Below are positions 1,245-45,785 of a DNA stretch of 54,499 nucleotides, one piece after another. The notes beneath the pieces are model-generated. The model worked only from the letters and a program-made list of their open reading frames with translations, was not told the DNA's origin and did no database searches. The DNA lies in contig JBDREC010000042.1 in NCBI GenBank assembly GCA_043820105.1, positions 1-54,499 of the forward strand, read 5' to 3'. Numbering within the stretch: the first letter of the stretch is position 1; each line of letters opens with the position of its first letter. This stretch comes from Pseudomonadota bacterium. GTDB lineage: Bacteria > Bdellovibrionota_F > JAHFAK01 > JBDREC01. The position numbers and the translations under genes are program-made.

Positions 1245-1389
1245 AGGTAATTAAGATCTTTGGAAAAGGACCTGAATTATTAAAAATAACCAATAATTAA
1301 CAATTAATAATTAATAATTAAAGACAAGGATTAACTCAGAAATGATATAAAAAGACTCCGAAAATTACAACACTAGCAACTAGCAACTT

Positions 1390-1459
1390 CACTTACCACT
1401 TACCACTTACCACTTACCACTTACAGCTTACCACTTACCACTTACCACTTACCACTTAC
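1390..1459. repeat. Heptamer tandem array (CACTTAC)x10
   Basis: Read directly; one variant unit. Overlaps the TAA stop of the 1456..2790 gene. Preceded by short (CTAGCAA)n and (AATAATT)n tracts. Confidence 0.95.
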
Positions 1460-2790
1460 TCCAAATACATACAAATCATCAACTCATATATAATTCCCTC
1501 TTCTTTAGCCAAAATCTTACGGTCATCCAGGAGACGCTTGAGCCTTATGGATTTGTCTTCAAGGCCTCTGCATTTAAAAGTTGTCTTGCCCTGGCATTCA
1601 TCATCCCATATTTTTTGATTATATCGATACTCTTTTTCGAGTTTACATAAGAGTTTATAGGCATCTGCATGTCGTGCCTTAAGTTTTGTTATGGTTCTTT
1701 GACCTGCATAGATTGAGGAGCTTACAATTCTTTTCATTTGTTTAAGGCGTTTATATAAGGAAGTTACAATCTCCAGATTTATAAAAAGCTTTTTTTCATC
1801 TTCTTTTTTAAGCTTATTTTCGAGCCACATGATTTTTCCAAGAATTTTTTGGCCCTCTTTATAGTATGGATCAATGTGATCTTTAACTAAATCAAATTGG
1901 CGATTAATTAGGGACATATCTCTTAGATACTGACAAAGAGTGGTAATTAATGAAAGCCAATGCCTAAAATCCTGAATTAAATAAAACTTATAATCTCTGC
2001 CCTCAAAATATATCGCGTGATTTTGCAATAGGTTTTTATTCATACCTCCAATATAATCAACTGTCATTTGACTTACTGAGTTTAATAAAAAATCTCTTGT
2101 CTTTTTTTCAAGTTCAAATGGAAGCTCTTGTGGCCAATCATTCAGCTCTTGTGTAAAGTCAAAATACAAATTATCTAAAGTTAATTTGATAAAAAAGTCC
2201 TTGCCCTTATTTTCGAAATCCTGCTCAAGCTCTAAAAGAGCTTGTCCCATCATTTTTTTTCTATCACTTGAATCAAGCAGATAATTGTCGCTGAGTTTAA
2301 TTATCTTAATATCCTCATCATCTATACCACAAAGGGCTTTTGCATAAACTTGACCTTCTCTTATTAGAAAATCTTCTCTAATTTTCCTGAAGTGAAGTCT
2401 TGGATCAAATTCGCAAGCATCATAAAAGCTGTCTTCATAACCTTTATATATAGCTGAATCATCCGGGTATTTTATCAAGCACTTTGAAACGCTAAAAAGT
2501 GTTTCCTTATTATTTGGATTATAATCGTCAAGACATTCATTTCTTTTACTTAGTTCAACAAAATATCTATCAATATAATCCCTTACATATTGATTATCAA
2601 AAACAACATCCAAATCCCGCTTTCTGTCTTTATATTCAAGATCCTTTTCCCCAAAAGAATAAATTTCATTGAGAGCATCTTGTCTTTGATTATCTTTCAG
2701 GGCTTTACCTATTCTTTTTAAAGGTGTAGAACATGATAAAATAACAAGGAATAGAATAGGCAAGAATATGGAAATCTTTTTTAAGCTCAT
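1456..2790 (-). CDS. Hypothetical lipoprotein
   Basis: 444 aa ORF with an N-terminal hydrophobic stretch ending in lipobox-like ILSC. No family recognised. Confidence 0.7.
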   Translation of the reverse strand: MSLKKISIFLPILFLVILSCSTPLKRIGKALKDNQRQDALNEIYSFGEKDLEYKDRKRDLDVVFDNQYVRDYIDRYFVELSKRNECLDDYNPNNKETLFSVSKCLIKYPDDSAIYKGYEDSFYDACEFDPRLHFRKIREDFLIREGQVYAKALCGIDDEDIKIIKLSDNYLLDSSDRKKMMGQALLELEQDFENKGKDFFIKLTLDNLYFDFTQELNDWPQELPFELEKKTRDFLLNSVSQMTVDYIGGMNKNLLQNHAIYFEGRDYKFYLIQDFRHWLSLITTLCQYLRDMSLINRQFDLVKDHIDPYYKEGQKILGKIMWLENKLKKEDEKKLFINLEIVTSLYKRLKQMKRIVSSSIYAGQRTITKLKARHADAYKLLCKLEKEYRYNQKIWDDECQGKTTFKCRGLEDKSIRLKRLLDDRKILAKEEGIIYELMICMYLE

Positions 2791-2958
2791 TTTTATCCTT
2801 AATCGTTAAAGGCAATTATTTTTACAATTAAACGCTATAAATCCAGAGCAACTTTTAATATTATTATAAATTTCGTTATATAGTAGATAATTTATACTTA
2901 AATTAAAAGCAAAATTTTATTTGCATTAAATTATTTAATCTACTAGGACTCTTTCATT

Positions 2959-4002
2959 ATGATAAATGAATTGCTTTTAACATATAATAAATTCCTGCCT
3001 CCACTTATATCAGTAATATTGATATCATTTTGTATGATACCACTAGTTATTGCATTGCTGGTTTTTATTTCATTATTTGTAGCTAAAATTGATGCCGCTA
3101 TAAGAAATGTAAAATTTGGCCAGATTTTTAATCATTTAAATAAAAGTATATTCATTCAAAAAACATCAAGAGGAATAGAAAAGACAATATTAATTTCCTT
3201 TTTGGTACTTGTTGTTTTTTTTCTATGCTTTTCAATTTTATTGATCCCTTTTTCTGATAAAGTATTTTTACTAACAACAGGTGCAAACTTAGTCTTAATT
3301 ATATCATTGCTTTTATCAGTTAAGCTTAGCTTTATGGTTTATCACTTTTTTGTTTCCTGCAAAAGCTTGAGAGATTCGAATGTATATACATATATTAATA
3401 TTTTTGTCGCAGCTTTTATAATCATCATATCAAGCTTAAGCGCATTAATTATTTCTGAAACTGGAAACCTAGGAGAGATCGTGTCTTTTCAGGGCACAAC
3501 TCCCCTAAGATGGAATATCTGTCACAATCCATTTTCTTTTGTATTGGCTGTTTTGTATTTTATTTCAATGTTCTTACTTTTAGAACTAAATCCTTTTGAC
3601 AGCAGAACCTTAGCATCAAAAAAACTAGGCTTAATGCAAAATTATTTTAAAATTAATAAAGACATCAATAAAATGATAAAATATGCTTTAATATTTTTAT
3701 TTTCATTAATTTTTGTTTTGATTTTTCTAGGTGGGTGGAATTTTTCAGTTGAGAAAACTTATCAACATAAAGAAACCTTAAGTGATTTATTTAAACCTTG
3801 TTTATTATTGCTCAAAACTACAATCATGGTTTATTTCATTTTATATTTAAACCACAAATTAATAAGCCCTGACTATAAAAAGCTCACAAAATTTTCCACA
3901 TTAGGACTTTTAATAGTTTGCCTTGTAAGTTTTTTATTTTTCATAGCTTATTATTTTATTTTTGGAAATGAATTCTTATTTGATCTTTGGATTAACAGCT
4001 AA
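2959..4002 (+). CDS. nuoH: Divergent NADH-quinone oxidoreductase subunit H-like membrane protein
   Basis: About 8 TM segments. Motifs WNICHNPFSF, LELNPFD and IFLGGW align by eye with the NuoH C-terminal half. Followed by a NuoI-like gene. Confidence 0.6.
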   Translation: MINELLLTYNKFLPPLISVILISFCMIPLVIALLVFISLFVAKIDAAIRNVKFGQIFNHLNKSIFIQKTSRGIEKTILISFLVLVVFFLCFSILLIPFSDKVFLLTTGANLVLIISLLLSVKLSFMVYHFFVSCKSLRDSNVYTYINIFVAAFIIIISSLSALIISETGNLGEIVSFQGTTPLRWNICHNPFSFVLAVLYFISMFLLLELNPFDSRTLASKKLGLMQNYFKINKDINKMIKYALIFLFSLIFVLIFLGGWNFSVEKTYQHKETLSDLFKPCLLLLKTTIMVYFILYLNHKLISPDYKKLTKFSTLGLLIVCLVSFLFFIAYYFIFGNEFLFDLWINS

Positions 4003-4024
4003 GAAAAGAAATGGAACAATAACA

Positions 4025-4537
4025 ATGATATTTTTTCAAATACTTAAGTCAATATATTCAACACTACATTTTGATAATAAGGAATTTTCAAATCAAAAAG
4101 AAATAAAACCAGTAAACAGCATCAATAAAGGGATTGCAGATCTAACTTTAGATAAAGATATTTGCACTGCCTGCAGAAAGTGTGAAGATGTTTGCCCTAT
4201 TCTTTGCATAGAAATCCAGATAAAAGAAAAAGTTGTAATGAATGGAGAACTTTTCCAATATGATATTGAAGGTCCCTTTGGCCAATTAAGAGAAGTTCCA
4301 AGTGAGTTTAAAAATTATAATAAAAGCAAAAAAATATTATCAGGCCTTGATATTGAGCGAGTTGATAAAAATAGATTTGCAGAATTTAAAATAGACAAGG
4401 TTAGCTGCACACTCTGTGGCCTATGCATAAATAAATGTCCAACAGGAGCCTTACGCTTTTCACCAAATGGACATAGAATTGTAAAGAAAATAGAAGAAAT
4501 TAATGAAACTTATCGATTTTATCCTGTTCAAATATAA
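4025..4537 (+). CDS. nuoI: 2x[4Fe-4S] ferredoxin-type protein, NuoI-like
   Basis: CTACRKCEDVCP and CTLCGLCINKCP motifs, directly after nuoH-like. Probable start ATG 4025 (ORF track starts at 3962). Confidence 0.65.
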   Translation: MIFFQILKSIYSTLHFDNKEFSNQKEIKPVNSINKGIADLTLDKDICTACRKCEDVCPILCIEIQIKEKVVMNGELFQYDIEGPFGQLREVPSEFKNYNKSKKILSGLDIERVDKNRFAEFKIDKVSCTLCGLCINKCPTGALRFSPNGHRIVKKIEEINETYRFYPVQI

Positions 4538-4540
4538 ATT

Positions 4541-4670
4541 AGTATTTAGTATTCGGTATTCGGTATTCAGTATTCGGTATTCGGTATTCAGTATTCAGTA
4601 TTCGGTATTCGGTATTCGGTATTCAGTATTCAGTATTCGGTATTCAGTATTCAGTATTCAGTATTCAGTA
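4541..4670. repeat. Heptamer tandem array (RGTATTC)x~18
   Basis: Read directly; begins 3 nt after the nuoI-like stop codon. Confidence 0.95.
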
Positions 4671-4678
4671 AAGATTAA

Positions 4679-4731
4679 ACTTACCACTTACCACTTACCA
4701 CTTACCACTTATAACTTACCACTTACCACTT
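4679..4731. repeat. Heptamer tandem array (ACTTACC)x~7
   Basis: Read directly; overlaps the last codons and stop of ileS. Confidence 0.95.
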
Positions 4732-7700: not shown

Positions 7701-7861
7701 GGCAAACCATTAGCAGTCGGTGGTCCTTCAAAAAAAACAAATGGTTTTCGATCTTTTCTAATTTCACAAGATTTTTTAAAAATATCGTTTTTCTTCCAAA
7801 AATCCAGAACTTCAGATTCCATATCTGGCAATTCTTTTTTCAGCAAACTTTCATTAAACAT
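4709..7861 (-). CDS. ileS: Isoleucine--tRNA ligase, type 2
   Basis: EGPPTANGLPGVHH, GWDTHGLPVE, WTTTPWTLP, DWAISRERYWG, EGIDQTRGWF and KMSKS motifs; 1050 aa with an IleRS2-type C-terminus. Confidence 0.97.
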   Translation of the reverse strand: MFNESLLKKELPDMESEVLDFWKKNDIFKKSCEIRKDRKPFVFFEGPPTANGLPGVHHFFTRTIKDIFCRYKTMQGFYVGRKAGWDTHGLPVELEIEKKLNLSSKSDIEEYGVLEFNKQCKDSVMQYESAWRELTDRMGYWLDMDDPYVTFTNDYIESVWWIIKQFYDKKLIYKGRKTVPYCARCGTPLSSHEVAQGYKEVKDPSLFVKFKAINKDFSFLVWTTTPWTLPANVALAVHPEHNYLLLKSGEEKFIIAEALANKVIIEEFRIEDKFKGSELLDIEYEPLLDFGLLPEDEKKKGYKVVGADFVTLDDGTGIVHIAPAFGEDDCKIGMEKDLPFLQPVDLEGKFVEGVGDWAGLFVKVADPKIIKHLKETEKLYKSEMYEHTYPFCWRCNTPLLYYVKASWYIKTTAFKEDLLKANNEINWSPDHIKAGRFGNWLENNIDWAISRERYWGTPLAIWQCICGEEICVGSRKDLQAFTEENIAELDLHKPYIDEITVNCPKCKEAMTRTEEVLDAWFDSGSMPLAQWGYPHKNRELFESNFPADFISEGIDQTRGWFYSLLAISTFLFKQSPFKNCLVLGIIQDKKGQKMSKSKGNAVDAWETIKTHGADSLRWYLSKTNNPWDNIRFNEADVKDIHWRFFVTIKNILSFFTLYANIDDLKKEMLGDLSKFEPKEVADVWIISKYNSLVKETIMQMEKYDITRTARAIDTFIDILSNWYIRTNRRRYWVSEMPENKLDAYKTLFICLDGLSKILAPFTPFWAEMVYKTLHGADETVHLQEYPKFDENLVNPKIEKEMDFIKDVVYLGRSIRNKTALKVRQPLSELYVIRAKEETFNPEQVLKEYKSILVDELNIKKVCHGQEKEGFVTYKHKLDFKQAGPKFGASVKKLSPLVEKLTDEESSKLFTMGTLNIEFEGTTFELEQNQVMRNVEGLSDYAAAEEGGLTVLLQTKLNKELISEGLAREVVNKVQFLRKESGFDVMDRIKIFYASDDEVAASIKKHLEHISKETLALEITREVEANEEMKEIKLNKLKAMIRLEKVVSGKL

Positions 7862-7891
7862 CTATAAACTCCGTAAAAGTTTTAATATTAA

Positions 7892-7915
7892 GGAGGGGAC
7901 AGGCCCCTCCACTAC
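7892..7915 (-). repeat. GTAG-type REP-like palindrome, copy 2
   Basis: Plus strand GGAGGGGACAGGCCCCTCCACTAC, one mismatch to copy 1. Confidence 0.8.
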
Positions 7916-8580: not shown

Positions 8581-8582
8581 TA

Positions 8583-8610
8583 ATTCAAGATTCAAGATTC
8601 AAGATTCAAA
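8583..8610. repeat. Heptamer tandem array (ATTCAAG)x4
   Basis: Read directly, between the PilZ gene stop and the pyrE start. Confidence 0.85.
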
Positions 8611-8626
8611 ATTAAAGGATAAATAA

Positions 8627-12024: not shown

Positions 12025-12048
12025 GTAGGGGAGGGGCTTGTCCCCTCC
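12025..12048 (+). repeat. GTAG-type REP-like palindrome, copy 3
   Basis: GTAGGGGAGGGGCTTGTCCCCTCC, 4 nt after a stop codon. Confidence 0.8.
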
Positions 12049-13861: not shown

Positions 13862-13955
13862 AATGATTCATGATTCATCATGGATAACTTGATTTTTACT
13901 GTATTAAAAAATATATTAACATATTAATAATTTTAAATGAATTTAATCAATAAAA

Positions 13956-16346: not shown

Positions 16347-16375
16347 GTTTTAAGTGTTATTATCCATTTTATTAA

Positions 16376-16408
16376 CACTTACCACTTACCACTTACCACT
16401 TACCACTT
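16376..16408. repeat. Heptamer tandem array (CACTTAC)x~5
   Basis: Ends 6 nt before the ftsE ATG. Upstream TAAGTGTTA can pair with TAACACTTA. Confidence 0.9.
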
Positions 16409-16414
16409 GTTTAT

Positions 16415-17065
16415 ATGATAGAACTTTTCCATGTTACAAAAACATATGAAAATGAAACTCACGCTCTATATGACGTAAGCTTACAGATTGAAAAATCTGA
16501 CTTCATTTTTTTAACAGGAGCATCTGGTGCTGGCAAAACTACTTTACTCAGACTAATTTTCGGCGCAGAACCAGCAAGCTCAGGACAAATCCTTGTAGGC
16601 GGACATAATGTTTCGGCATTAAAAGCTCACCAGCTTCCAATGCTAAGAAGAAAAATGGGAATCGTTTTTCAAGACTTTAAACTCATTCAATCAAGAACTA
16701 TTTATGAAAATGTTTCCTTTACTCTTGAAGTATTGGGATTAAGTCAAAAAGAAATAAAAAGAAAAACATGGAATGTTTTAAAAGATGTTGGTCTTCAACA
16801 CAGAATGAATCATTTCCCAAAACAACTTTCAGGTGGAGAACAACAAAGAGCCGCAATAGCCAGAGCCTTAGTCAATGATCCCTTGATTATGATTGCAGAT
16901 GAGCCAACTGGCAACCTTGATTGGGATTTAACCCTGGAAATAATGAATTATTTTAATAGAATGAATGCCAGAGGAACCACAATTTTAATTGCAACCCATA
17001 ATCAAAACATACTCAAGCTTTATAATAAAAAAACTATTCATCTTGAGAAAGGAAGAATAGCTTGA
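16415..17065 (+). CDS. ftsE: Cell division ATP-binding protein FtsE
   Basis: [24 protein letters not shown] and ADEPTGNLD motifs; followed by ftsX. Confidence 0.95.
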
Positions 17066-21155: not shown

Positions 21156-22796
21156 CTAAATTGTTGGTCCTACTCCTGGAGGTGTTAGCCCTTGAAGTAA
21201 GCCTAAAATTGTGTTTTGAATTTCTAACATAACTTGATTATCTTTAAATTTAGAATTTTTATAAGCCTTTCCCTGGTATGAAATTCTTCTTCCAAATTTA
21301 TCATAAGTAATTGTAGCTTCACCACAGTCTTTTTTGGTCATTTGAGTAGGTTTGCCAAAATAATTATAAGTAAAACTTATTTCATTACCTGTATTATCTG
21401 AAATATAAGCTGGTTTTCCCCTATTATTATACTTCATGGTAATTTTTTTACCTTTGTTTGTTTTTGACTGAATTATATTTCCGAGCTTGTCATATTCTAA
21501 AGCAGTAACAGTACCATCGCTTTGAGTAATTGACTTCATTTGATTGAATTTCTTTTCATATGTAAATTCTATTACATCTCCGCTGGAGTTTGTTTTCCTA
21601 ATAAGATTATTTTCTTTGTCATATTCAAAATATTCTGCTTGTCCTTTTTCATTGGTAATAGACATTGGCTTATTACAACAAGGGGTATTCATTACGGTTC
21701 GGTTTGTACCATCATTTGTTGTTTCAACTATTTTATATTGATCTTTATAAAAGTCATATTTACGCCAAGTTCCATTATAATAACTAGTCTTTACCCAATG
21801 ATGAAATTTATTATTTTTATCTTCCTTGCGTTCATATGTTGTAACACTGCCCGTAGTATCAATTTGCTTTCCTATCCAACCTTTTTTATTGTAATAATTC
21901 TTTAATTTTTTACCATCAGGATAAGTAATTTCAACAATATTATTTGTTCTGTCTTCATAGTTGTACCTTGTAACTTTACCATCTGAATCTTTATATCCTA
22001 TCATCCTATCTTTTTTATCATAAGTATACTGAAATTTTCTATTAAAAGGATCAGTGATTTTTGATATTTTTCCACGCTTATTATAATCAAGTCTCATCTT
22101 TCGTCCGCAAGAGTCAGAAACATATTTAAGTTGTCCGTTAATATGCTGCATAGTAATTGCATTGCCATTTCTATCAACTACTTTTACAATAAGCCCATCT
22201 TTGTTAAAATAATCTTTGCGACCGTTTTGTAATATCCTCACATATGAACCATTATCTAATTTTTGCAGAACAGCATAACCTCGATCATAGGATTCATATT
22301 TGCCCGCTTTTGTTTGAGCTGATGACTTAATATATTTCGCCTTCATTTCTTTATAAAGCTCGTCATCTTTAACAAGCTTTGTATAGAGTTCTTTATAATA
22401 ATTTGTACTTTTTTTAATACTCTTTCCCTCAAGCTCCTTTTTACGAAGAAGCATTATTTTTTTGGCACTATTTTTTCTGTATTTTTCACCTTCCCCAAAA
22501 GGCACAAATTCATTTGTTCTTCCATCCATTTCTAAAATTTCAATGCTGTCTCCTCGTTCATATAGCCTAACATCATAATTAAAGGTCCAGCTCTTACCAA
22601 ATGGACCATTATATCCAATAAAACTTGAAAAGGTCCTGAAAACTTCCAAAGGATTGCTATAACAAGGTATTGAAAAATCCTCAAACTGTTCAATATAGTT
22701 TAAGGTTTTTTTATTAACAATTGCACTTGCTAATGTGAAAGAACAAATAAAAGTTAGTAAAATAATAAATATTACAAATAGTTTTTTATCCTTCAT
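21156..22796 (-). CDS. Secreted YD/RHS-repeat protein without toxin C-terminus (Bd0109-like)
   Basis: Likely start ATG 22796 with upstream AAGGGA. Signal peptide, DUF6531-like GPFGKSW motif, many YD repeats; no RHS core/DPxG motif. Confidence 0.8.
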
Positions 22797-22985
22797 ATCA
22801 AAATCCCTTATTTTATTTATAAAAATCGAGTTATATCTTATACTCAGGTCAAATAAAATGTCCAATTATTTTTCATTAATTTGATTTTGCATTGACTATT
22901 AATATAGTGTAAAGCATTATTTTAAAAATTGAAAACACTTCGATTTTATTGTATAATAGAGACAGTAGGTTAGTTAGAGGAAAGC

Positions 22986-30803: not shown

Positions 30804-30830
30804 AAATTGCTATTGGTAACTCATAAAAAT

Positions 30831-30897
30831 ACTTACGACTTACCACTTACGACTTACGACTTACCACTTACCACTTACCACTTACCACTACCACTTA
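30831..30897. repeat. Heptamer tandem array (ACTTACS)x~9
   Basis: Mixed ACTTACG/ACTTACC units between pilP and pilQ. Confidence 0.95.
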
Positions 30898-30916
30898 TTA
30901 ATATAAATATCAAAAT

Positions 30917-33970: not shown

Positions 33971-34210
33971 CTAGTTTGTCTCTTCAAAAAACACTTTGCT
34001 TTTTTCAGTAAGCTTATAGCCAAGTGCTAAAATAATTTTTCTCTTAGTATCCATGCGACAACTCTCGCCACTTTCAATCCTGTCAATAGTTAATGCAGAT
34101 ACTGAAGCCTTGCGAGCAAGTTCAGCTTTACTCATAAGCTGAGCTTCTCTTAAATTTCTAACGTTGTTACCTATAGCCTTTTTGACATCTTTTAATTTTT
34201 TATTTGTCAT
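33971..34210 (-). CDS. XRE-family HTH transcriptional regulator
   Basis: NNVRNLRE...MSKAELARKASVSALTIDRIE; directly upstream of pilM, an arrangement I recall from delta-type pil loci. Confidence 0.85.
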   Translation of the reverse strand: MTNKKLKDVKKAIGNNVRNLREAQLMSKAELARKASVSALTIDRIESGESCRMDTKRKIILALGYKLTEKSKVFFEETN

Positions 34211-34485
34211 TTTTACCTATCTATTTCCCGTAAATAGTCTTTATTAACTATGCATTTTAACTTATCGCTTTCGCCATAGTCAAGCCTTTTATCATATAAT
34301 TTAATATAATTTTAAGTATTTTAATAATAGTTTTATTAAATTAAGCACTAACTATATGTAATTTTTATAAAATATTACTCATTTTTCCCATAAAACAATG
34401 ACAAAAAACACCCCTTCCAAACAGGCAACATCTCATTATTATTGAATGTTTTCAATGAAGGTCTGAATATATAAGGTATTTGGAT

Positions 34486-36394: not shown

Positions 36395-36417
36395 TACCCC
36401 CCCCTTATTATAAATAA

Positions 36418-36445
36418 TAAGTCGTAAGTTGTAAGTTGTAAGTTT
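36418..36445. repeat. Heptamer tandem array (TAAGTYG)x4
   Basis: Reverse-complement variant of the ACTTACS family; followed by complementary ACAACTTACC. Confidence 0.85.
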
Positions 36446-36748
36446 TGTGTTACCAACAACTTACCTTAAATACCCCCTTTATAATATTTAGTATAGCAAA
36501 TTTTATTTATTTTGGGAAGGAAAAAGTGCCCTAGATCACATAATGCAAGCTAGGGCAACGTAATTAATTGTTTTTATTTGTCAATTTAAATTGTGTCTAT
36601 CAAGGCTACTGCGTTTGAATAGATACAATTATTTGAAATATCAGTAAAATGAAATACTTCCAAGATCAATTTCTCTGACTGGATATGTTTTTTGACTTTT
36701 TATTTTTTTATTGCTAGGTGGAATAAGAGAACAAGAATAGGAGTATTA

Positions 36749-38131
36749 ATGCAGACATTACATTCTATTATAACTTGGTACAATGAATATATTGGATCTT
36801 ATGCAATAATGATTCTTTTAGTACCTGCTGGACTTTATTTTACATTTAGATTTGGTTTCATCCAGGTTCGGGGCATTATTCATGCAATTAAAATTACTGC
36901 TGGCAAATATGATAATCCAAATGAAAAAGGTGATGTGTCGCATTTTAAGGCTTTATGCACAGCTTTATCAGCTACAGTCGGCACAGGAAATATTGCAGGA
37001 GTTGCCCTGGCTATTTATTTTGGCGGACCTGGAGCTATTTTTTGGATGTGGGTAACTGGTTTTTTGGGTATGGCAACTAAGTTTACTTCATGTACCTTAG
37101 CTCTTAAATACAGGAAAATAAATGCTGACGGTTCGGTTTCTGGTGGACCGATGTATTATATAAAGGAAGGTCTAAAGCATAGGCTTGGCAAATTCGCAAC
37201 AGTCTTGGCCTTTTTATTTGCTTTTGGTACAATTATTTGTTCCATTGGAACAGGAAACATGGCTCAATCAAACTCAATGGCAGATGCACTTTTTACTAAT
37301 TATGCTATTCCTCACTGGTTATCTGGATTAGTAGTGGCCTTTTTTGTTTTCATGGTCATTGTTGGTGGAATTAAAAAAATAGCAAGTGTAACAAGTTATC
37401 TAGTTCCAATTATGGCTGCTTTTTATATCATGGCCGCACTAACTGTTATATTCCTTAATATTGACAATACTTTTGATGCTTTTGCTTTGATTTTCAGGTC
37501 AGCTTTTTCTGGCCATGCAGCAGCTGGTGGTTTTATTGGTTCAACAATTATGATGACAGCCAGAGCTGGTATCGCCAGAGGACTTTTTTCAAATGAAGCA
37601 GGTCAGGGTTCCGCGCCAATTGCTCATGCTGCAGCTAAAACTCAATTTCCAGTAAGAGAAGGTCTGGTTGCCTTACTTGAACCACTTATTGATACCTTAC
37701 TAATTTGCACAATGACTGCTCTAGTTATTATTTTTACAAACACCTGGGATTCTGGCTTAAAAGGTGTTTCAATGACCATATCTGCCTATTCAACGGGTTT
37801 AGATAAAATAGGAATGGGATATATGGGTGAACACATTGTTGCCATAGGCTTATTTTTATTTGCCTTTTCAACAGCAATTAGTTGGTCATATTATGGAGAT
37901 CGAGCAGCAGAATTTATTTTTGGCCCACAAGCAATAAAACCATATAGAATCATTTATTGTGTTTTTATTTTTTTAGGAGCCATTTTTACAATTGATTTTA
38001 TTTGGGCTTTTGTTGATATGGCAATAACTTTTATGACAATCCCAAATATTATTGCAATTTTATTACTTTCAGGTGTTGTTGCTAAGGAAACAAAAAAATA
38101 CTTTAAAGAAAAAGAATATCTTATAAAATAA
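36749..38131 (+). CDS. Sodium:alanine/glycine symporter (AGCS family)
   Basis: ATVGTGNIAGVA, GGPGAIFWMW, GGPMYYI and RGLFSNEAGQGSAPIAHAAA motifs; AGGAG supports ATG 36749. Confidence 0.93.
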   Translation: MQTLHSIITWYNEYIGSYAIMILLVPAGLYFTFRFGFIQVRGIIHAIKITAGKYDNPNEKGDVSHFKALCTALSATVGTGNIAGVALAIYFGGPGAIFWMWVTGFLGMATKFTSCTLALKYRKINADGSVSGGPMYYIKEGLKHRLGKFATVLAFLFAFGTIICSIGTGNMAQSNSMADALFTNYAIPHWLSGLVVAFFVFMVIVGGIKKIASVTSYLVPIMAAFYIMAALTVIFLNIDNTFDAFALIFRSAFSGHAAAGGFIGSTIMMTARAGIARGLFSNEAGQGSAPIAHAAAKTQFPVREGLVALLEPLIDTLLICTMTALVIIFTNTWDSGLKGVSMTISAYSTGLDKIGMGYMGEHIVAIGLFLFAFSTAISWSYYGDRAAEFIFGPQAIKPYRIIYCVFIFLGAIFTIDFIWAFVDMAITFMTIPNIIAILLLSGVVAKETKKYFKEKEYLIK

Positions 38132-38203
38132 AGCTGTAAGCGTTAAGCTGTAAGCTGTAAGTTTCATATAATCCTTACCACTTACCACTTACCACTTACC
38201 ACT
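38131..38203. repeat. Paired heptamer arrays (AAGCTGT)x~5 and (CTTACCA)x4
   Basis: Read directly; the two tracts fill most of the gap between the symporter stop and the rhomboid start. Confidence 0.9.
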
Positions 38204-38948: not shown

Positions 38949-38994
38949 GTTATAGCGTACAGCAAATTGTTTTATTGGTAGCAGAACTAGTCCT

Positions 38995-39030
38995 AGAACG
39001 AGAACTAGAACTAGAACTAGAACTAGTTCT
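38995..39030. repeat. Hexamer tandem array (AGAACT)n ending in the palindrome AGAACTAGTTCT
   Basis: Read directly, downstream of tRNA-Val and the rhomboid gene. Confidence 0.85.
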
Positions 39031-39054
39031 AAATTTTTGTTGCACAAAAATTTA

Positions 39055-39128: not shown

Positions 39129-39233
39129 TTGATAATTAAAAATTCAAAATTCAAAATTTTAAATTAAGAACTACGGATTACATTTAAAAATTTTATGTTT
39201 AAATTGCAAGTTTGAAGTTTTAATTTTTAATTA

Positions 39234-40088
39234 TTATTCAATATTCATAGAAATATCAACAGATGTTGCATGATGAGTTAAGGCTCCAACAGAAATATAA
39301 TCAGCTCCCAAATTAATATAGTCTAAAATATTATCAAACCCAATTCCGCCTGATATTTCAACTTCACAAGATTTGTTTATAATTTTTAAAGCTTTTTTGA
39401 TTAATTTTGGGGACATATTATCTAGCATAATAATATCGGCTTTTGCAAGACATGCTTCTTCAACTTGCTCAAGGGTCTTCGTCTCAACTTCAATCTTCAT
39501 GGACATATTATCACCTGCCCGAACTAAGTCTACTGCCTTTAAAATAGAGCCTGCTGCTTTAATATGATTATCTTTTATCATTATGCCAGATGCTAAATTA
39601 TACCTATGGTTAAAACCACCGCCATCACTAACAGCTTTCTTTTCGAGCATTCTAAAGGCAGGAGTAGTTTTTCTTGTATCTAAAATTTTGGTTTTAGCAG
39701 AACCAATCTTTTTAATATATTTGTTAGTAAGTGTTGCAATTCCAGAGAGTTTTTGAATAAAATTTAAAGCAACTCTTTCTCCCTTTAGTAAATTACTTAT
39801 ATTACCATTAACACTAATTATTTTATCTCCAGTTTTTAATGAATCTCCATCTTTGGCTTGAACTTGAAATTCAAAGTCATCTGCCAGCAAGTCAAAGGTT
39901 CTTTCAAAGGGGATAAGACCCGAAAGAATTAAATCCTCTTTGGCAGTAACAGTTGCTGTTGTAAAAAGATCTGTAGCTTGTGAAAAAATAAGATCTGTGG
40001 TTATGTCACCGCTGCCTATGTCTTCTAATAAAGCCAGCTTAATAAGATCATCTATGTATTTATTCATTTTCATCCTTGTTTCATTCAT
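39234..40088 (-). CDS. nadC: Nicotinate-nucleotide diphosphorylase (carboxylating)
   Basis: EDIGSGDITT, ERVALNF, LDTRKTTP, MIKDNH, IMLDN and ISVGALTH motifs. Confidence 0.96.
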   Translation of the reverse strand: MNETRMKMNKYIDDLIKLALLEDIGSGDITTDLIFSQATDLFTTATVTAKEDLILSGLIPFERTFDLLADDFEFQVQAKDGDSLKTGDKIISVNGNISNLLKGERVALNFIQKLSGIATLTNKYIKKIGSAKTKILDTRKTTPAFRMLEKKAVSDGGGFNHRYNLASGIMIKDNHIKAAGSILKAVDLVRAGDNMSMKIEVETKTLEQVEEACLAKADIIMLDNMSPKLIKKALKIINKSCEVEISGGIGFDNILDYINLGADYISVGALTHHATSVDISMNIE

Positions 40089-40094
40089 TGAGAA

Positions 40095-40170
40095 TTGATT
40101 GTTGATTATTGATTATTGATTATTAATGGGCGTTAAGAAAATAATCAATAATCAATAATTAATAATTAAT
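40095..40170. repeat. Inverted pair of heptamer arrays (TTGATTA)n / (AATAATC)n
   Basis: Read directly between nadC and pmbA; the two tracts are mutually complementary. Confidence 0.88.
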
Positions 40171-40199
40171 GGAAGAATGCCTCATATTAAAAAAACTGA

Positions 40200-42901: not shown

Positions 42902-42916
42902 TGAATCCTCCTATTG

Positions 42917-42964
42917 ATTGCTAGTTGCTAGTTTCTGGTAATTCAAAATCCAAAATCCAAAATT
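42917..42964. repeat. Short paired heptamer tracts (TTGCTAG)x2 / (CAAAATC)x3
   Basis: Read directly, between the tldD start and the uppP stop. Confidence 0.7.
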
Positions 42965-42969
42965 TCTTG

Positions 42970-43806
42970 TTATAAAAACTCCATAATTACTGAAAGCACT
43001 CCAATAACAATACAATAATATGCAAAATAAATAAAGCTGCCTTTTAATATCATTTTTAATAGTAATTTCAAAGCAAATATACCAACTATAAATGTAACAA
43101 AAAATCCAACAATCATATATAAAAGTTCCTGGCCTAGCACTAACTCAACTTCAGATAGTTTCAATAAAAATGCTCCTGCAATTGCTGGAATTGACATTAG
43201 AAAGGCAAATTTGCCAGTGTCTTCTCTATTTAGTTTCAAAAGCAAACCTGATGCTATTGTAAAACCAGATCTTGAAATGCCAGGAATTACAGCCAGGCCC
43301 TGAGCAATTCCTATTATTAAAGATTTTTTAATATTAACTTCTTCATTATTTTTAGCTTTAATTTTTCCAGAGATAATTAATAAAAAAGCGGTAACAAAAA
43401 GCATTACACCAACCCAAAAATACGATCTTGCCAGGTTTTCAACAAAATCCTTTAAAAGCAGACCAATTATTGCTGTTGGGATTGATGCAAAAAAGATTCC
43501 AATTAGAAATCTCAAATATTTATCTTCATCATAGTCCTTTTTAAAAAATTTGTTCTTATTTAGCAAATATTGAGGCATAATAAAAAGGCGATTGATAAGC
43601 ATTAAAATATCTTTATAAAAAACAACAATTACTGAAAGCAAGGTTCCAACATGTAGTAAAACATCGTAAAAATTACTTGGCTCATTTAAACCAAACAGTT
43701 TACTTAGCAAAACCAAATGCCCTGAGCTAGATACTGGTAAGAATTCAGTCAAGCCTTGCATAATGGCAAGAGCAATGCATTGAATAAAAGTAATAATAAC
43801 CTCCAA
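42970..43806 (-). CDS. uppP: Undecaprenyl-diphosphate phosphatase
   Basis: QGLTEFLPVSSSGHL and PGISRSG motifs. Confidence 0.96.
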   Translation of the reverse strand: MEVIITFIQCIALAIMQGLTEFLPVSSSGHLVLLSKLFGLNEPSNFYDVLLHVGTLLSVIVVFYKDILMLINRLFIMPQYLLNKNKFFKKDYDEDKYLRFLIGIFFASIPTAIIGLLLKDFVENLARSYFWVGVMLFVTAFLLIISGKIKAKNNEEVNIKKSLIIGIAQGLAVIPGISRSGFTIASGLLLKLNREDTGKFAFLMSIPAIAGAFLLKLSEVELVLGQELLYMIVGFFVTFIVGIFALKLLLKMILKGSFIYFAYYCIVIGVLSVIMEFL

Positions 43807-43887
43807 AAAAAATTAATGTATTGAAATTATTTTTTTATTAATTACAATAAAGAAAAAAAAAGCAAATAATATTTTGGAGGCACTTAA

Positions 43888-45114
43888 GTGAATTATTCAA
43901 AAAAAAATAATTACATCAAATTGATTCCATTGCTGCTAATAACTTCTATAACTATTTATGCACAGGCGAATAGCGCTAGCCTTCCACTTGGAGAATACAT
44001 TGTAACAGTTGATTCAGCTCAAATCTATATTGATCCAGAAATGAGTGATATATTCATGGGTTCTCCTAAAAACACCATTGTTCAGGTCACAGGCTTTATA
44101 CAAAGTGGACAGGGAGTAAAGTTATATACCGTAAATGTTCCAGGGCAAGAAATACCGATAACTGGATATATAAAACAAGCAGACATGAAACCTTTTACAG
44201 GTGAAATTCCTAGTGATAACAATGCGTTCGCCGGTACCAGTGAAGATGAGTTTTCAGAAGTTGATGAAAAAGCTAGCCCAATGTTTGAAGATGATTTGAG
44301 AGTTAAAGATAAGCTTGGACCAATGTTAGGTGTTGGTTTATTAACAGGCATGCAAACAGAAAGCTATCTATTATCAACAACCGCTGGAGGTGGTGGAAAT
44401 GTCATTAATACTTCTTTAGCTCCTGCAATAACTTCTGGAGTCTGGGTTGATTATTATCCTCTCAGATCTAGAAGGCATGCAATGGGCATTGATGTAAAAT
44501 ATCAACTTGGCTACACAAGCTATACACTCGTTTTAGATGATGATATTATAACTGGGTATAGCGCGAAACACTCAGCAATGACTCACATGGCAGAAGGTGC
44601 TTTAAAGTATCGAGTTTATTTAATTAACAACAGAAAGTCCTTTGTTTTGATGCCAAGGATAGGGTATAGAATGCATATGTTTATGGGAGATGATGTTACA
44701 TCAGCAAAGGATGAGACACTAATTACATCTGATATGCTTTTTTATGTTGATTCCACAATCAGTGGAATAGTGCTTGAACCCCTTAACTTTGAGTACACGC
44801 TTCCCTTTGGAGGCGATGGATTTGACCTTGGTTTCTCAGGCGGCTTTGAGCTTTTCCTTATGCCATCATATTCTGAAACTCCTGCAGCATCTACAGGCCA
44901 AACTGCTAGCATGTCTCCTCTAAACTACTTTTTTAAAGGCGGAATTTTCATGTTAATTGCACAGCACTGGAAATTAAAATTAGATTATCAGAGAATGTAT
45001 TATAATACTGATTTTTCAGGAACAGATGGAGAAAGATATCAGGTCACAATTACAGGTGGGCAAATCAAAGAAGCTTATCAGAATATTACTTTTTGTTTTG
45101 GGTATCAGTTCTAA
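43888..45114 (+). CDS. Hypothetical outer-membrane beta-barrel protein with N-terminal SH3-like domain
   Basis: Signal peptide, amphipathic beta pattern, C-terminal FGYQF (BAM-type signal). Confidence 0.6.
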   Translation: MNYSKKNNYIKLIPLLLITSITIYAQANSASLPLGEYIVTVDSAQIYIDPEMSDIFMGSPKNTIVQVTGFIQSGQGVKLYTVNVPGQEIPITGYIKQADMKPFTGEIPSDNNAFAGTSEDEFSEVDEKASPMFEDDLRVKDKLGPMLGVGLLTGMQTESYLLSTTAGGGGNVINTSLAPAITSGVWVDYYPLRSRRHAMGIDVKYQLGYTSYTLVLDDDIITGYSAKHSAMTHMAEGALKYRVYLINNRKSFVLMPRIGYRMHMFMGDDVTSAKDETLITSDMLFYVDSTISGIVLEPLNFEYTLPFGGDGFDLGFSGGFELFLMPSYSETPAASTGQTASMSPLNYFFKGGIFMLIAQHWKLKLDYQRMYYNTDFSGTDGERYQVTITGGQIKEAYQNITFCFGYQF

Positions 45115-45115
45115 C

Positions 45116-45147
45116 AAGTGGTAAGTGGTAAGTGGTAAGTGGTAAGT
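45116..45147. repeat. Heptamer tandem array (AAGTGGT)x~4.5
   Basis: Reverse complement of the CACTTAC family; starts 1 nt after a stop codon. Confidence 0.92.
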
Positions 45148-45161
45148 TTGAATTTCATTGA

Positions 45162-45725
45162 TTAGAAGTCAATATTTTTTGAGTTCACAATATAAGCAAA
45201 ACCATAGCTCAAATTTAAAATACTTGCAGAATGCATTTCCTTTTTGGGGGCATTTGTACAATCTTCCAGAAAAAAAACTCTATAATCGCGGCAAAAGGCA
45301 TCTCTTGCTGTTGTTTCACAGCAACAATTTGTCATAACTCCGGAGATAAAAAGATTCTTAATATTATTTCCCTTTAAATATAAATCAAGGTCTGTATTAA
45401 GAAAAGCTGAGTATCTGTTTTTCTCAATAATTTTATCGTTTAAAGTAGGCTGAAGCTTTTTGACTATTTCAAAATCATCATCAGATTTCAATAAATGCTC
45501 ATCCCACCATTCATATAACATTCCAGCGTCCTTGAGTGGATCAACATGTCCATGTTTTGTATAGATAGTTTGAATAGAAATTTCCTGTGCAAAATCAATA
45601 ACAGCCTTAACAGAATCAATAATTGGATCAATAATACTTTTAAAATAATTCTGCATATCAATAACCAAAAGAACCGATTTCAAGGGATTAATATTAACAA
45701 ACCCTCTATGCGTCTTAATATTCAA
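45162..45725 (-). CDS. Isochorismatase/cysteine hydrolase family protein
   Basis: LLVIDMQNYF, KNRYSAF and GVMTNCCCETTARDAF motifs. Confidence 0.9.
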   Translation of the reverse strand: MNIKTHRGFVNINPLKSVLLVIDMQNYFKSIIDPIIDSVKAVIDFAQEISIQTIYTKHGHVDPLKDAGMLYEWWDEHLLKSDDDFEIVKKLQPTLNDKIIEKNRYSAFLNTDLDLYLKGNNIKNLFISGVMTNCCCETTARDAFCRDYRVFFLEDCTNAPKKEMHSASILNLSYGFAYIVNSKNIDF

Positions 45726-45744
45726 ACCATCACCTTCTATAATT

Positions 45745-45785
45745 AAATACCAAATACTGAATACCGAATACTAAATACTAATTTC
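45745..45785. repeat. Heptamer tandem array (RAATACY)x5
   Basis: Reverse complement of the 4541 array type; shares its start AAATTAGTATTTAGTATTCGGTATTC. Confidence 0.88.

Follow-up and report, generated by a model that had tools for sequence, protein, structure and literature searches.

Tandem heptanucleotide arrays lie against start and stop codons throughout the window (the whole stretch of 54,499 nucleotides analysed here, from an uncultured low-GC diderm whose proteins in this stretch show no sign of a cyanobacterium), and their orientation is non-random: whichever side a gene is entered from, the strand running in is A/C-rich and poor in G, and the strand running out is G/T-rich. This polarity is real and general beyond the window. 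The arrays belong to the known class of bacterial heptanucleotide simple-sequence repeats (STRR-like repeats, long simple sequence repeats (LSSR) and TAACTGA repeats; PMC4679880).

To define the repeats, the window was scanned with TRF at a minimum score of 30. Period 7 accounted for 26 of the 75 rows returned, period 6 for 5 and period 8 for 6. Exact arrays of at least three copies numbered 13 at period 7, 2 at period 6 and 1 at period 4, with none at periods 5 and 8–12 in the window scan, and 100 first-order Markov simulations gave a mean of 0.0 period-7 arrays (maximum 0). Period 7 also prevailed in 297 kb of other genomes carrying the CACTTAC unit (151 rows, against 2 for period 6 and 8 for period 8), which contained about 65 heptamer arrays outside the CACTTAC family. 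Such an excess over chance and over periods 6 and 8 indicates that something period-specific is at work. A preliminary description had claimed that period 7 dominates, and this holds in both data sets; the arrays it named were all recovered by TRF within a few bases of where it had placed them, including those at 1390, 4541 and 45744. Genes cover a fraction of 0.89 of the window, and all 13 exact period-7 arrays fell in the non-genic 11%, with at most 12% of each array's length in a gene. The earlier remark that arrays sit against start or stop codons is likewise accurate: 17 tabulated arrays had a boundary within 40 nt, and a stop codon was touched or overlapped by those at 1390–1459 (distance -4), 4679–4731 (-23), 38131 (-1) and 45116 (+1). 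The arrays are listed below (SD, Shine-Dalgarno sequence).

1292..1321, no strand assigned: AATAATT x4.3 (TRF), G/C-neutral, in the middle of a gap between two - strand genes, nearest boundary 134 nt away
1372..1388, no strand assigned: ACTAGCA x2.4 (TRF), complement of the TTGCTAG unit at 42918
1390..1459, - strand: (GTAAGTG)x10, adjoining and supplying the TAA stop of a 444-aa lipoprotein-like gene (1456..2790); unstructured as RNA on folding
4541..4670, + strand: (RGTATTC)x18.6, beginning 3 nt past the ferredoxin stop; the A and G variants of the unit are grouped in blocks
4679..4731, - strand: (GGTAAGT)x7.6, encoding the final six residues of IleRS (VVSGKL) and its stop; homologues terminate 1–4 residues past the conserved EK
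8583..8617, + strand: (ATTCAAG)x5, PilZ stop at 2 nt and next start at 9 nt; G/C-neutral, slightly A/C-rich
13863..13878, no strand assigned: ATGATTC x2.3 (TRF), marginal, 77 nt upstream of MetH
16347..16408, + strand: degenerate G-type units, then (CACTTAC)x5.3, from the MetH stop to near FtsE; the CACTTAC part stops 6 nt before the FtsE ATG, without an SD, and the two parts pair into a hairpin (-15.4 kcal/mol, z = -4.7)
30831..30897, - strand: (GGTAAGT)x9.6, PilP stop at 19 nt and PilQ start at 27 nt; pairs with one GTTACC-type unit before pilQ (z = -4.75)
36418..36466, + strand: (TAAGTYG)x3.9 and one complementary unit downstream (z = -4.6 and -3.4), 23 nt from the start of a - strand response-regulator gene
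38131..38161, + strand: (TAAGCTG)x4.4, with the stop codon of an alanine symporter gene inside the first unit
38174..38203, + strand: (CTTACCA)x4.3, 13 nt before a rhomboid ATG, without an SD; folding with the 38131 array gives z = -1.8
39134..39158, no strand assigned: AATTCAA x3.6, 5 nt upstream of tRNA-Val (- strand); polarity exception
39218..39236, no strand assigned: TTTTAAT x2.7, at the NadC stop; polarity exception
40094..40124, + strand: (TTGATTR)x4.4, NadC start (- strand) 5 nt away; forms the 5' arm of a hairpin
40140..40170, + strand: (AATAATY)x4.4, reverse complement of the 40094 array, PmbA stop 29 nt away
42918..42933, + strand: (TTGCTAG)x2.3, TldD start (- strand) 16 nt away; an SD follows on the - strand
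42940..42963, + strand: (AATCCAA)x3.4, UppP stop (- strand) 6 nt away
45116..45147, + strand: (AAGTGGT)x4.6, 1 nt past the stop of a 408-aa OMP-like gene, in a convergent gap
45744..45781, + strand: (YRAATAC)x5.4, 18 nt from the isochorismatase start (an exception) and 72 nt upstream of PilB (which fits)
52799..52819, - strand: (AAGGATT)x3, about 30 nt before a response-regulator gene that is split; resembles an SD and is G-type, hence a polarity exception

The four gaps with paired arrays all showed a keto-rich (G+T) array first and an amino-rich (A+C) array second on the + strand, with skews of +1.9 at 4541 and -2.5 at 4679, +0.7 at 38131 and -2.8 at 38174, +3.4 at 40094 and -2.0 at 40140, and +3.5 at 42918 and -4.1 at 42940. 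The GT-then-CA order proposed for these gaps is thereby confirmed by skew. The G/T-rich strand was directed away from the nearest gene in 13 of the 17 boundary-near arrays, the exceptions being 8583, 39134, 39218 and 45744; the counter-example suspected earlier at 39134–39236, upstream of tRNA-Val, is a true exception.

The window contains at least six unit families, and dozens of unit classes occur in the other genomes. Seven sites in the 54 kb carry a CACTTAC-family unit. The heptamer was found 32 times against 3.5 expected, and since only 5 of the 32 are singletons it is enriched as arrays, not as a word. The units had been called unrelated, which is not true of all of them: several are complementary. 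The arrays at 40094 (GATTATT type) and 40140 (AATAATC) are reverse complements that form a 20-bp hairpin (z = -4.4), 42918 (TTGCTAG) has its complement at 1372 (CTAGCAA), and the 45744 unit belongs to the complement family of 4541. The units at 38131 and 38174 are complementary at 5/7 positions. Three arrays that seem single, at 16372, 30831 and 36418, are each accompanied in their own gap by a complementary partner, short or degenerate, and these gaps fold at z = -4.6 to -4.75; four window gaps in all fold at z = -4.4 to -4.75. Folded singly, arrays of both C type and G type were unstructured as RNA.

Beyond the window, polarity was assessed at no fewer than 113 loci with (CACTTAC)n from 99 other assemblies, the source genome not among them, with gene boundaries taken from ORF calls made in this analysis. 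Among the loci listed, the 73 adjacent pairs included, where the two arrays were of opposite G/C sign, 41 in G-then-C order, spread over 38 loci and 33 assemblies, and a single C-then-G pair, which adjoins an N run. The arms matched at 5/7 positions or fewer in 16 of the 41. Both suppositions made from the window, that paired arrays are oriented non-randomly and that they are so even when the units are not complementary, are supported by these counts. For the CACTTAC family, 43 arrays lay within 30 nt of a boundary of an ORF of at least 200 aa: on the start-codon side 13 were C-type and 2 G-type, on the true-stop side 15 were G-type and 3 C-type, and those without a preceding stop comprised 3 G-type and 7 C-type. 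At 33 short loci, true stops carried 7 G-type and 0 C-type arrays, and starts 3 of each. Units outside the family were, on the sense strand at starts, amino-rich in 13 cases, neutral in 2 and keto-rich in 0, and at true stops G exceeded C in 8 and C exceeded G in 3. The polarity held in co-directional, convergent and divergent gaps, independently of gene orientation; in convergent gaps the stop-codon rule was followed in 5/5 cases in other genomes and at 4541, 4679 and 45116 here. As controls, array-free gene boundaries showed no skew, and 28 ordinary hairpins showed no bias (G-rich 5' arm in 11, C-rich 5' arm in 11).

Arrays at gene starts and gene ends differed in character. Where a C-type array lay no more than 30 nt ahead of a start, an SD-like tetramer preceded that start in none of 14 cases, and an SD is likewise missing behind the arrays of the window genes at 16415, 38217, 40088 and 30803. 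A start codon was absent from the sense strand of 13/15 non-family leader arrays, versus 8/15 of their complements. At gene ends, a G-type array supplied the stop in 3 + 5 ORFs of other genomes, and non-family stop-side arrays contained a stop on the sense strand in 6/11 cases and on the antisense strand in 3/11. Most arrays are 25–35 nt long. The flanking genes in the window are housekeeping genes (among them IleRS, MetH, FtsE, PilP/Q, NadC, PmbA/TldD and UppP), with different units at the two ends of a flanked gene. Flanked genes belong to the core set, with ribosomal protein operons and aminoacyl-tRNA synthetases among them.

We favour the explanation that the repeats are born by slippage and that selection on mRNA filters their orientation, and give it roughly even credence; selection on mRNA is the best reading of the polarity, as a candidate cause. 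Strand slippage in DNA synthesis, favouring 7-nt units, would account for origin and length change, and the heptamer excess has been put down to polymerase slippage (cited in PMC4679880). Arrays would survive only in short non-coding gaps and therefore be pressed against start and stop codons, and selection on the transcript would set their orientation. An array before a start may act as a G-poor, unstructured, SD-independent leader, and one just past a stop is G/U-rich. GUAAGUG, the commonest family, has a stop in all three frames, so overrun of the gene end would be harmless. Where both are present, the G/U arm past a stop may also base-pair with the A/C arm ahead of the following start, and the resulting hairpin between cistrons could couple expression or modulate it; because of the 16 poorly matching pairs among 41, hairpin formation is not the general reason. 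If translation matters, the sole tRNA-adjacent array would be expected to break the rule, as it does. The only experimental hints, tentative ones, come from Nostoc (bioRxiv 10.1101/2022.06.06.494920). Against selection, the stop rule also applies to convergent gaps, in which there is no downstream gene to require a leader, and stop-codon content explains the stop-side rule only partly. Selection also leaves unexplained the period of 7 and the 7-site recurrence of the CACTTAC unit, which is not enriched as a word.

The polarity, symmetric about the gap, independent of gene orientation and 41 to 1 in pairs, is also precisely the outcome to be expected if 3' ends were extended from either side of a break between genes. 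Double-strand breaks or cleaved hairpins in the gap would be repaired by lengthening the 3' end on each side toward the break, through a telomere-like templated activity, as the preliminary description proposed, or ordinary slipping repair synthesis; with the new strand G/T-rich, the rejoined gap would read G/T-rich and then A/C-rich whatever the gene orientation. Persistence of the order with non-complementary arms (16/41), replacement of a native gene end by an array in IleRS and the use of one unit at many sites although it is not a common word all fit, yet we consider this origin unlikely. A single template would give one unit, and the many unit families per genome count against a templated enzyme. 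No significant purity gradient ran along the G strand (0.090, 0.068 and 0.071 in the 5', middle and 3' thirds), mismatch density not being significantly lower at its 3' end (61 arrays; 27 versus 19 arrays; p = 0.17). As noted earlier, no responsible enzyme is visible: the window encodes no polymerase-, RT-, HUH-like or nuclease candidate, and none of 76 flanking ORFs scanned in other genomes belongs to a transposase, integrase or reverse-transcriptase family. Because the G-type strand is not structured, a slipped-strand bias would have no obvious basis. Furthermore, the tRNA-adjacent gap is reversed, and the leaders, at fixed short distances from starts and without an SD, look functional. Of the dedicated 7-nt process suggested at first, the period-specific excess and the general polarity stand; the telomere-like enzyme and the scars of mobile gene cassettes are not supported.

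Protein binding could instead impose the period. A cold-shock domain covers about 6–7 nt, and the arrays might be sites for a single-strand nucleic-acid-binding protein with a footprint near 7 nt (ribosomal protein S1 or a cold-shock-domain protein, for instance), recruited by A/C-rich (pyrimidine-containing) leader arrays; S1, Csp and CsrA have been proposed as candidates (PMC4679880). Period 7 across many unrelated units suggests a constraint on size, not sequence, and the leaders are unstructured and without an SD. However, a non-specific binder needs no periodic site, unit diversity in one genome argues against one specific regulator, and G/T-rich arrays behind stops are left unexplained, which makes binding improbable as the cause. 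Rho prefers C-rich, G-poor, unstructured RNA, and a role in its management appears less probable still. G-free, C-containing arrays would be loading pads on transcripts entering a gene, the sense transcript being rescued by the ribosome and the antisense one terminated, while G/U-first hairpins would hide the C-rich arm from Rho within operons. The C-type strand, G-free and unstructured, does always enter the gene, from both ends, and the polarity is array-specific, absent from ordinary hairpins. A rut site nevertheless needs roughly 60–80 nt, more than most arrays offer, and a pad before essential genes such as those for ribosomal proteins (L010, L027, L034) would be costly. To our knowledge, cyanobacteria lack Rho. 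Such arrays occur there too (L002, L106; PMC4679880). The least probable origin, in our view very doubtful, is that paired arrays are arms of transposable hairpins (REP/BIME- or MITE-like foldback elements) or junctions of cassette insertion. Many loci do form a near-perfect palindrome of (GTAAGTG)n, a short spacer and (CACTTAC)n, and several copies occur per genome, with at least four loci in one Acidobacteriota MAG and 2–4 loci in at least 12 assemblies among the loci listed. But spacers and flanks are unconserved even inside one genome, and the seven family arrays in the window have no flanking sequence in common. Neither the window nor the 76 flanking ORFs scanned elsewhere yielded a transposase, RAYT, integrase or RT family, and the flanked genes are core genes whose two ends carry different units.

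Among known systems, STRR are the heptamer repeats of cyanobacteria, from which the present case differs in that the window proteins give no cyanobacterial sign. One close likeness is to the TAACTGA repeats known from marine Beggiatoaceae, cyanobacteria and Bacteroidetes (MacGregor 2015, PMC4679880; this and the following points are from sections of that paper). These too are tandem 7-nt units in 2 to dozens of copies, almost all intergenic, mostly 'forward' and a few nt from a start codon with few ribosome-binding sites; certain sets run into the 3' end of the preceding ORF, ribosomal-protein operons are among the sites, other heptamers are intermixed, and single copies of the unit show no enrichment. 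Strains are set apart by 7-nt indels, and relatives by these and by gaps that are filled in one and empty in another (PMC4679880). The window contains no TAACTGA dimers, one mismatch allowed, and its host is a different, uncultured lineage. Since TAACTGA is G/C-neutral, the G/T-versus-A/C rule, the stop rule and the G-then-C order are not described in those sections. LSSR have units of 5–11 nt (Mrazek et al. 2007, summarised in PMC4679880), and LSSR-rich genomes have more units of 7 nt than of any other length, as is the case here; that summary gives a scattered phylogenetic distribution, polymerase slippage with a 7-nt contact as the proposed cause, and no strand polarity relative to genes. 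Geobacter metallireducens similarly has heptamer families, with 4–5 units in tandem at each of tens of sites and a putative role as global regulatory elements in the annotation, but in the part of PMC2700814 used here these have a fixed copy number, GC-rich units, a partly intragenic location and alignable flanks.

As in telomeric repeats, the units are short, G/T-rich and in tandem, and their G strand leads 5'->3' away from unique DNA; unlike telomeric repeats, the arrays are internal, not terminal, have many units per genome and no significant distal purity, and no template-bearing enzyme was found in the window. REP/BIME likewise form hairpins in the gaps of co-directional or convergent genes and are present many times in a genome. 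The present arrays differ in lacking a conserved palindromic unit, their arms being tandem heptamers in variable number with unconserved spacers, and no RAYT-like gene was seen in the window or the 76 flanking ORFs elsewhere. Contingency-locus repeats share with them the slippage-prone tandem structure near gene starts; in the account given in PMC4679880, the units are mostly 1–5 nt, lie in reading frames or promoter spacers, and switch surface genes on and off in host-adapted pathogens. The arrays described here, in contrast, flank housekeeping genes, and do so on both sides.

The heptamer arrays reported in the preliminary description are real, and every array named there was found at its position. 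At a low threshold, Tandem Repeats Finder (TRF) assigned period 7 to 26 of 75 rows in the window, compared with 5 for period 6 and 6 for period 8. A tolerant scan for at least 3 copies returned 18 period-7 segments, 2 period-6 segments and none at periods 5 or 8–13. Exact runs of at least 3 copies numbered 13 at period 7, 2 at period 6, 1 at period 4 and 0 at periods 5 and 8–12, so that the proposed excess of period 7 over periods 6 and 8 was borne out in the window (13 versus 2 versus 0 exact arrays). The expected number of exact period-7 arrays was 0.0, and 100 first-order Markov simulations of the window never produced one. Although our own gene list assigns 89% of the window to genes, all 13 are intergenic; their overlap with genes is limited to a few bases at two gene ends and never exceeds 12% of an array's length. 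CACTTAC occurred 32 times against 3.5 expected; 27 occurrences lay within arrays and only 5 were singletons, indicating that the enrichment concerns arrays of the heptamer rather than the heptamer by itself. Array-end phases were non-uniform, but the ends of exact runs are mostly variant units rather than true termini.

At least six unit families were distinguished in the window.

Heptamer unit families in the window (arrays are named by their start coordinates)
GTAAGTG (G-type strand) / CACTTAC (C-type strand), the CACTTAC family: seven sites
GTATTCR: 4541; complement at 45744
GATTATT / AATAATC: 40094, 40140, 1292
TTGCTAG: 42918; complement at 1372
ATTCAAG, AATTCAA and AATCCAA: 8583, 39134 and 42940, respectively
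AATCCTT: 52799

The units had been described as unrelated, which stands only in part: the 40094 and 40140 arrays are reverse complements of each other, and other arrays also have complementary partners. The 40094/40140 pair folds into a 20-bp stem (z = −4.4). Each of the gaps 16347–16414, 30804–30916 and 36395–36470 holds a long array with a short or decayed complementary partner, and folding of these gaps gave z values of −4.6 to −4.75. The 38131/38174 pair is complementary at 5 of 7 positions (z = −1.8), and the arrays 1390, 45116 and 8583 and the gap 42918/42940 were unstructured on folding. The flanks of the window arrays are not conserved.

The stop codon of the symporter gene lies within the first unit of the 38131 array, and the TAA of the gene adjoining the 1390 array is likewise supplied by the array. 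The IleRS frame ends in an array at 4709–4731, whose units encode the last six residues (VVSGKL) and the stop codon; the unit before the stop carries a point variant (TTA for TGG). IleRS homologues, by contrast, end one to four residues past a conserved EK. The starts at 16415, 38217, 40088 and 30803, directly behind an A/C-rich array, are without a Shine-Dalgarno (SD) sequence, whereas other window genes have one.

The arrays were proposed to follow a strand rule, in which the G/T-rich strand points away from the neighbouring gene and paired arrays run G/T-rich then A/C-rich. Indeed, all 4 paired gaps showed this order on the + strand. Seventeen arrays have a gene boundary no more than 40 nt away, and in 13 of them the G/T-rich strand pointed away from it, a proportion that taken alone is suggestive at most; the exceptions were 8583, 39134, 39218 and 45744. 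One suspected counter-example was confirmed, as the gap 39129–39233, upstream of tRNA-Val, is a genuine reversal; the sole array adjoining a tRNA gene does not obey the rule.

We then searched a species-representative genome collection with three exact CACTTAC copies as seed, which yielded at least 113 loci in at least 99 assemblies; these loci were chosen for one unit, and the counts among the matches listed are not frequencies. Bacteroidota contributed at least 42 loci, Acidobacteriota at least 17, Nitrosomonadales/Gallionellaceae and relatives at least 14, Gammaproteobacteria at least 13 and Planctomycetota at least 6. Among the matches listed, further hosts include Chloroflexota, Clostridia, Omnitrophota, cyanobacteria, Alphaproteobacteria and others, Shewanella, Gallionella and Flavobacteriia are array-rich hosts, some loci come from cultured isolates whose genomes are finished or near-finished, and locus GC ranges from 32% to 68%. 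In the 297 kb of locus DNA listed, TRF returned 151 rows with period 7, 2 with period 6 and 8 with period 8. About 65 of these period-7 rows have units other than CACTTAC, in roughly 50 classes among the matches listed, indicating that the carrier genomes are heptamer-rich in general. Gene boundaries outside the window are our own long-ORF calls in the flanks rather than annotations; array sequence was excluded from ORF calling, and therefore stops and starts within an array cannot bias the calls.

Orientation of CACTTAC-family arrays on the sense strand in other genomes, among the matches listed (set 1: ORFs ≥200 aa with the boundary no more than 30 nt away, n = 43; short loci: 33 short loci)
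Start codon nearest: set 1, C-type 13, G-type 2; short loci, C-type 3, G-type 3
Genuine stop nearest: set 1, C-type 3, G-type 15; short loci, C-type 0, G-type 7
No stop before array: set 1, C-type 7, G-type 3; short loci, C-type 2, G-type 5

Where an ORF has no stop before the array, a G-type array provides the stop and a C-type array is read through in frame. For non-family units (at least 2 mismatches from the CACTTAC family), arrays beside starts among the matches listed were A/C-rich on the sense strand in 13 cases, neutral in 2 and G/T-rich in 0, and those beside genuine stops had G>C in 8 and C>G in 3. In the listed co-directional gaps, 18 of 23 arrays were C-type on the sense strand, mostly nearer the downstream start; in the listed convergent gaps, all 5 stop-adjoining arrays were G-type on the strand of that gene.

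The cleanest statistic, which needs no gene calls, comes from heptamer arrays within 80 nt of each other. There were 73 such pairs among the matches listed, 42 of them of opposite G/C sign, and 41 of these ran G-rich then C-rich, with 1 in reverse. Scoring the same pairs by G+T versus A+C gave 36 to 1 among the matches listed. The 41 pairs are spread over at least 38 loci in at least 33 assemblies; in 25 of them the two arms agree at 6 or 7 of the 7 positions, and in the other 16 no more than 5 positions agree, again among the matches listed. The one C-then-G pair listed, L022 2000–2056 (L-numbers denote loci matching the seed), forms a perfect palindrome directly next to a stretch of N and is probably an assembly artefact. 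The GT-then-CA polarity of the preliminary description is thus real, and the orientation of paired arrays is not random.

Background composition was ruled out as the cause of the polarity, as array-free gene boundaries showed no comparable skew. Upstream of array-free starts the sense strand was A/C-rich in 48% of 23 cases in the window and in 57% of 67 in the other genomes (among the matches listed); downstream of array-free stops it was G/T-rich in 12% of 8 and, among the matches listed, 41% of 49, respectively. A general property of hairpins was also ruled out, since 28 ordinary perfect hairpins outside arrays had a G-rich 5′ arm in 11 cases, a C-rich one in 11 and a neutral one in 6. With both controls lacking bias, the polarity is a property of the arrays, and not of their neighbourhood or of hairpins in general. 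The orientation rule glimpsed in four gaps is therefore real, general and array-specific.

Individual loci in other genomes show diverse placements. In two Acidobacteriota, CACTTAC-family arrays (L027 1999–2021 and L034 1959–2032) lie at the same S19–L22 junction of the ribosomal protein operon, with a nearly identical G-free spacer ahead of the L22 ATG, and in L010 such an array lies between trmD and rplS (L19). C-orientation arrays stand within continuous long ORFs in L035 (1955–2026; in an ArnT-like glycosyltransferase, where the array separates the membrane domain from the C-terminal one) and in L028 (1995–2025; between a Mur ligase domain and alanine racemase); these could be in-frame insertions or gene fusions via the stop-free strand. 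In L072 (1939–2022) and L092 (170–324), the paired arrays enclose a GC-rich stem-loop as their spacer, so that the stem of a terminator-like hairpin is lengthened by the heptamer arms.

We would describe the host as an uncultured diderm of low GC content (about 32%) that carries type IV pilus genes. STRR in the strict sense are repeats of (heterocystous) cyanobacteria; no photosynthesis genes were found among the 44 window ORFs scanned. The C-terminal third of IleRS reached a best identity of 44–46% in the protein collection, with named matches in Ignavibacteriota, Zixibacteria, KSB1 and Firmicutes; MreB showed 63–77% identity to the entries matched, the named ones being proteobacterial. Window proteins without assignment resemble lipoproteins, secreted acidic proteins and an outer-membrane barrel, and gave no DNA-handling match in Pfam, NCBIfam or PDB. 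An IS91-like transposase considered at 52831–54169 because of a motif was dropped, as searches of the same three databases gave no match. Rfam at gathering thresholds returned two tRNAs and no other match in the window. Promoter-like sites (105 versus 79 expected) and terminator-like sites (13 versus 9.7) were uninformative in this AT-rich window.

Other features of the window were also recorded. The sole sizeable non-heptamer array, (AGAACT)x7 at 38983–39031, separates the rhomboid gene from tRNA-Val. Because each unit can pair with the adjacent one (AGAACTAG/CTAGTTCT), the array forms a hairpin with a T run after it, and the terminator scan detected it on both strands. A GGAGGGG-loop-CCCCTCC hairpin occurs in three intergenic copies (1221–1239, 7892–7910 and 12030–12048; 0 expected by chance). 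These GC-rich hairpins, in a window of 32% GC, also have the G-rich arm first and look REP- or terminator-like; one directly follows the stop of a 780-aa gene. A response-regulator receiver gene (52404–52800, − strand) is apparently split into overlapping ORFs (52573..52800 and 52404..52646), which could be a frameshift or a sequencing error, and an AAGGATT array lies ~30 nt upstream of its ATG. A 79-aa HTH_3 (Cro/C1-type) ORF (33971–34210, − strand) lies within the 557-nt gap upstream of the pilM operon, its start overlapped by a weak TTTTAAT array (34190–34215), and a gene for a 569-aa RHS-repeat/DUF6531 protein (21156–22865, − strand) adjoins mreB.

We think that the arrays arose by slippage and that selection at the transcript level filters their orientation. 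A G-free strand can include none of the codons AUG, GUG and UUG, nor can it mimic an SD sequence or fold on itself; the stop codons and start codons, three of each, all belong to a C-free strand. An SD-like tetramer preceded the start behind 0 of 14 C-type arrays at most 30 nt upstream in other genomes (among the matches listed), and listed non-family leader arrays were without a start codon in 13 of 15 cases on the sense strand versus 8 of 15 for their complements. In the G orientation the CACTTAC-family unit has TAA in every frame, which would let G-type arrays overrun gene ends harmlessly. The SD-less leaders, the start-free sense strands, the TAA-rich G units and the rule-breaking array beside the tRNA gene are all consistent with a transcript filter. 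It has weak points, however. The stop-side rule holds in convergent gaps too, and stop-codon content accounts only in part for the G-type arrays behind genes: listed non-family arrays beside stops contain a stop codon in 6 of 11 cases on the sense strand versus 3 of 11 on the antisense strand. Nor does the filter give a reason for period 7 or for the seeding of many sites by one unit.

Alternatively, a conserved directional process of DNA synthesis might have lengthened the 3′ ends at intergenic breaks or stalled hairpins toward one another, through reiterative slippage in 7-nt steps or by templated addition, and this, instead of RNA-level selection, would be the cause of the polarity; we regard this break-extension reading as unlikely, a live minority reading. 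Exactly the observed polarity would result if both 3′ ends at a break were extended, and it also holds with non-complementary arms; the order is near-absolute in at least 33 assemblies from many phyla while absent from ordinary hairpins and array-free boundaries. The G-rich strand runs 5′ to 3′ toward the break, as a telomere-like model requires, in 41 versus 1 pairs (among the matches listed) and in 13 of 17 window arrays. Against its telomere-like form stand the many units per genome, as one unit per template would be expected and at least 6 families occur in the window and about 50 unit classes elsewhere (among the matches listed). Furthermore, the mismatch fraction along the G strand was 0.090 in the 5′ third, 0.068 in the middle and 0.071 in the 3′ third (n = 61 arrays), and a purer distal 3′ end was not significantly favoured in these arrays (27 versus 19, p = 0.17). 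No reverse transcriptase or templated polymerase was found in the window, which is part of the genome only; Pfam, NCBIfam and PDB searches agreed with the earlier statement that no responsible enzyme is visible there. The proposal of a dedicated telomere-like enzyme gained no positive support, given the many units and the lack of a significant purity gradient.

Scars of a mobile cassette, the other mechanism proposed at the outset, fared no better. In the window, the genes beside the arrays are ordinary core genes. Among the matches listed, 147 flanking ORFs were called, of which 76 were sent to Pfam and 61 had a match; transposase, integrase or reverse-transcriptase families accounted for 0 of the 76. 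These ORFs include ribosomal proteins S19, L22, L2 and L19, several aminoacyl-tRNA synthetases, MutS, Mfd, SMC, IMPDH/GuaA and PilB/PilC (among the matches listed). REP- or MITE-like conserved termini or spacers were not found, and spacers and flanks differ even within one genome. Mobile foldback elements, a Rho-related role and a protein with a 7-nt footprint are further rivals to the transcript filter.

Few features of bacterial intergenic DNA are as common, and as little explained, as heptamer repeats. What is new here is a simple, testable strand rule across at least 99 assemblies that neither background composition nor hairpin formation in itself explains. If the rule reflects selection, it marks widespread SD-independent leaders and intercistronic coupling hairpins, and would help gene callers to place starts beside arrays. 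If mutation underlies the rule, a directional process of repair or slippage at gene boundaries is indicated; directional synthesis, if true, would be a bacterial analogue of chromosome healing. Either way, the rule is an experimental handle on why the period is 7 and what the repeats do.

In the literature searched, with Mrazek et al. 2007 at second hand, no description of CACTTAC arrays or of G/T-versus-A/C heptamer polarity was found. The arrays add a new example to a known class, the bacterial heptanucleotide repeats (LSSR/STRR-like), as they show an excess of period-7 tandems, a mostly intergenic position and several units per genome (at least 6 families). PMC4679880 cites Mrazek et al. 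2007 for the finding that heptanucleotides rank first in abundance among long SSRs in most repeat-rich genomes, and for polymerase slippage with a 7-nt contact as the proposed cause. Other sources describe tandem heptamer families of four or five copies in Geobacter metallireducens (PMC2700814) and, in Nostoc, a heptamer triplet upstream of recF that is A/C-rich on the sense strand and that the preprint speculates to enhance translation (bioRxiv 10.1101/2022.06.06.494920). According to MacGregor (PMC4679880), one Beggiatoaceae genome has 169 TAACTGA sets, most pointing toward a start codon a few bases off and rarely with an RBS; 14 run into the end of the preceding ORF, single copies of the unit are not enriched, and other heptamers are intermixed. 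The same source reports that 7-nt indels distinguish Cyanothece strains and that Bacteroidetes relatives show empty junctions. The TAACTGA family differs in its unit, dimers of which are absent from the window (0 with up to 1 mismatch allowed). The likeness lies in the orientation toward a nearby start without an RBS, as in the window arrays 16372, 38174, 40094 and 42918 and in other genomes, where 13 of 15 family arrays at most 30 nt from a start are C-type on the sense strand (among the matches listed).
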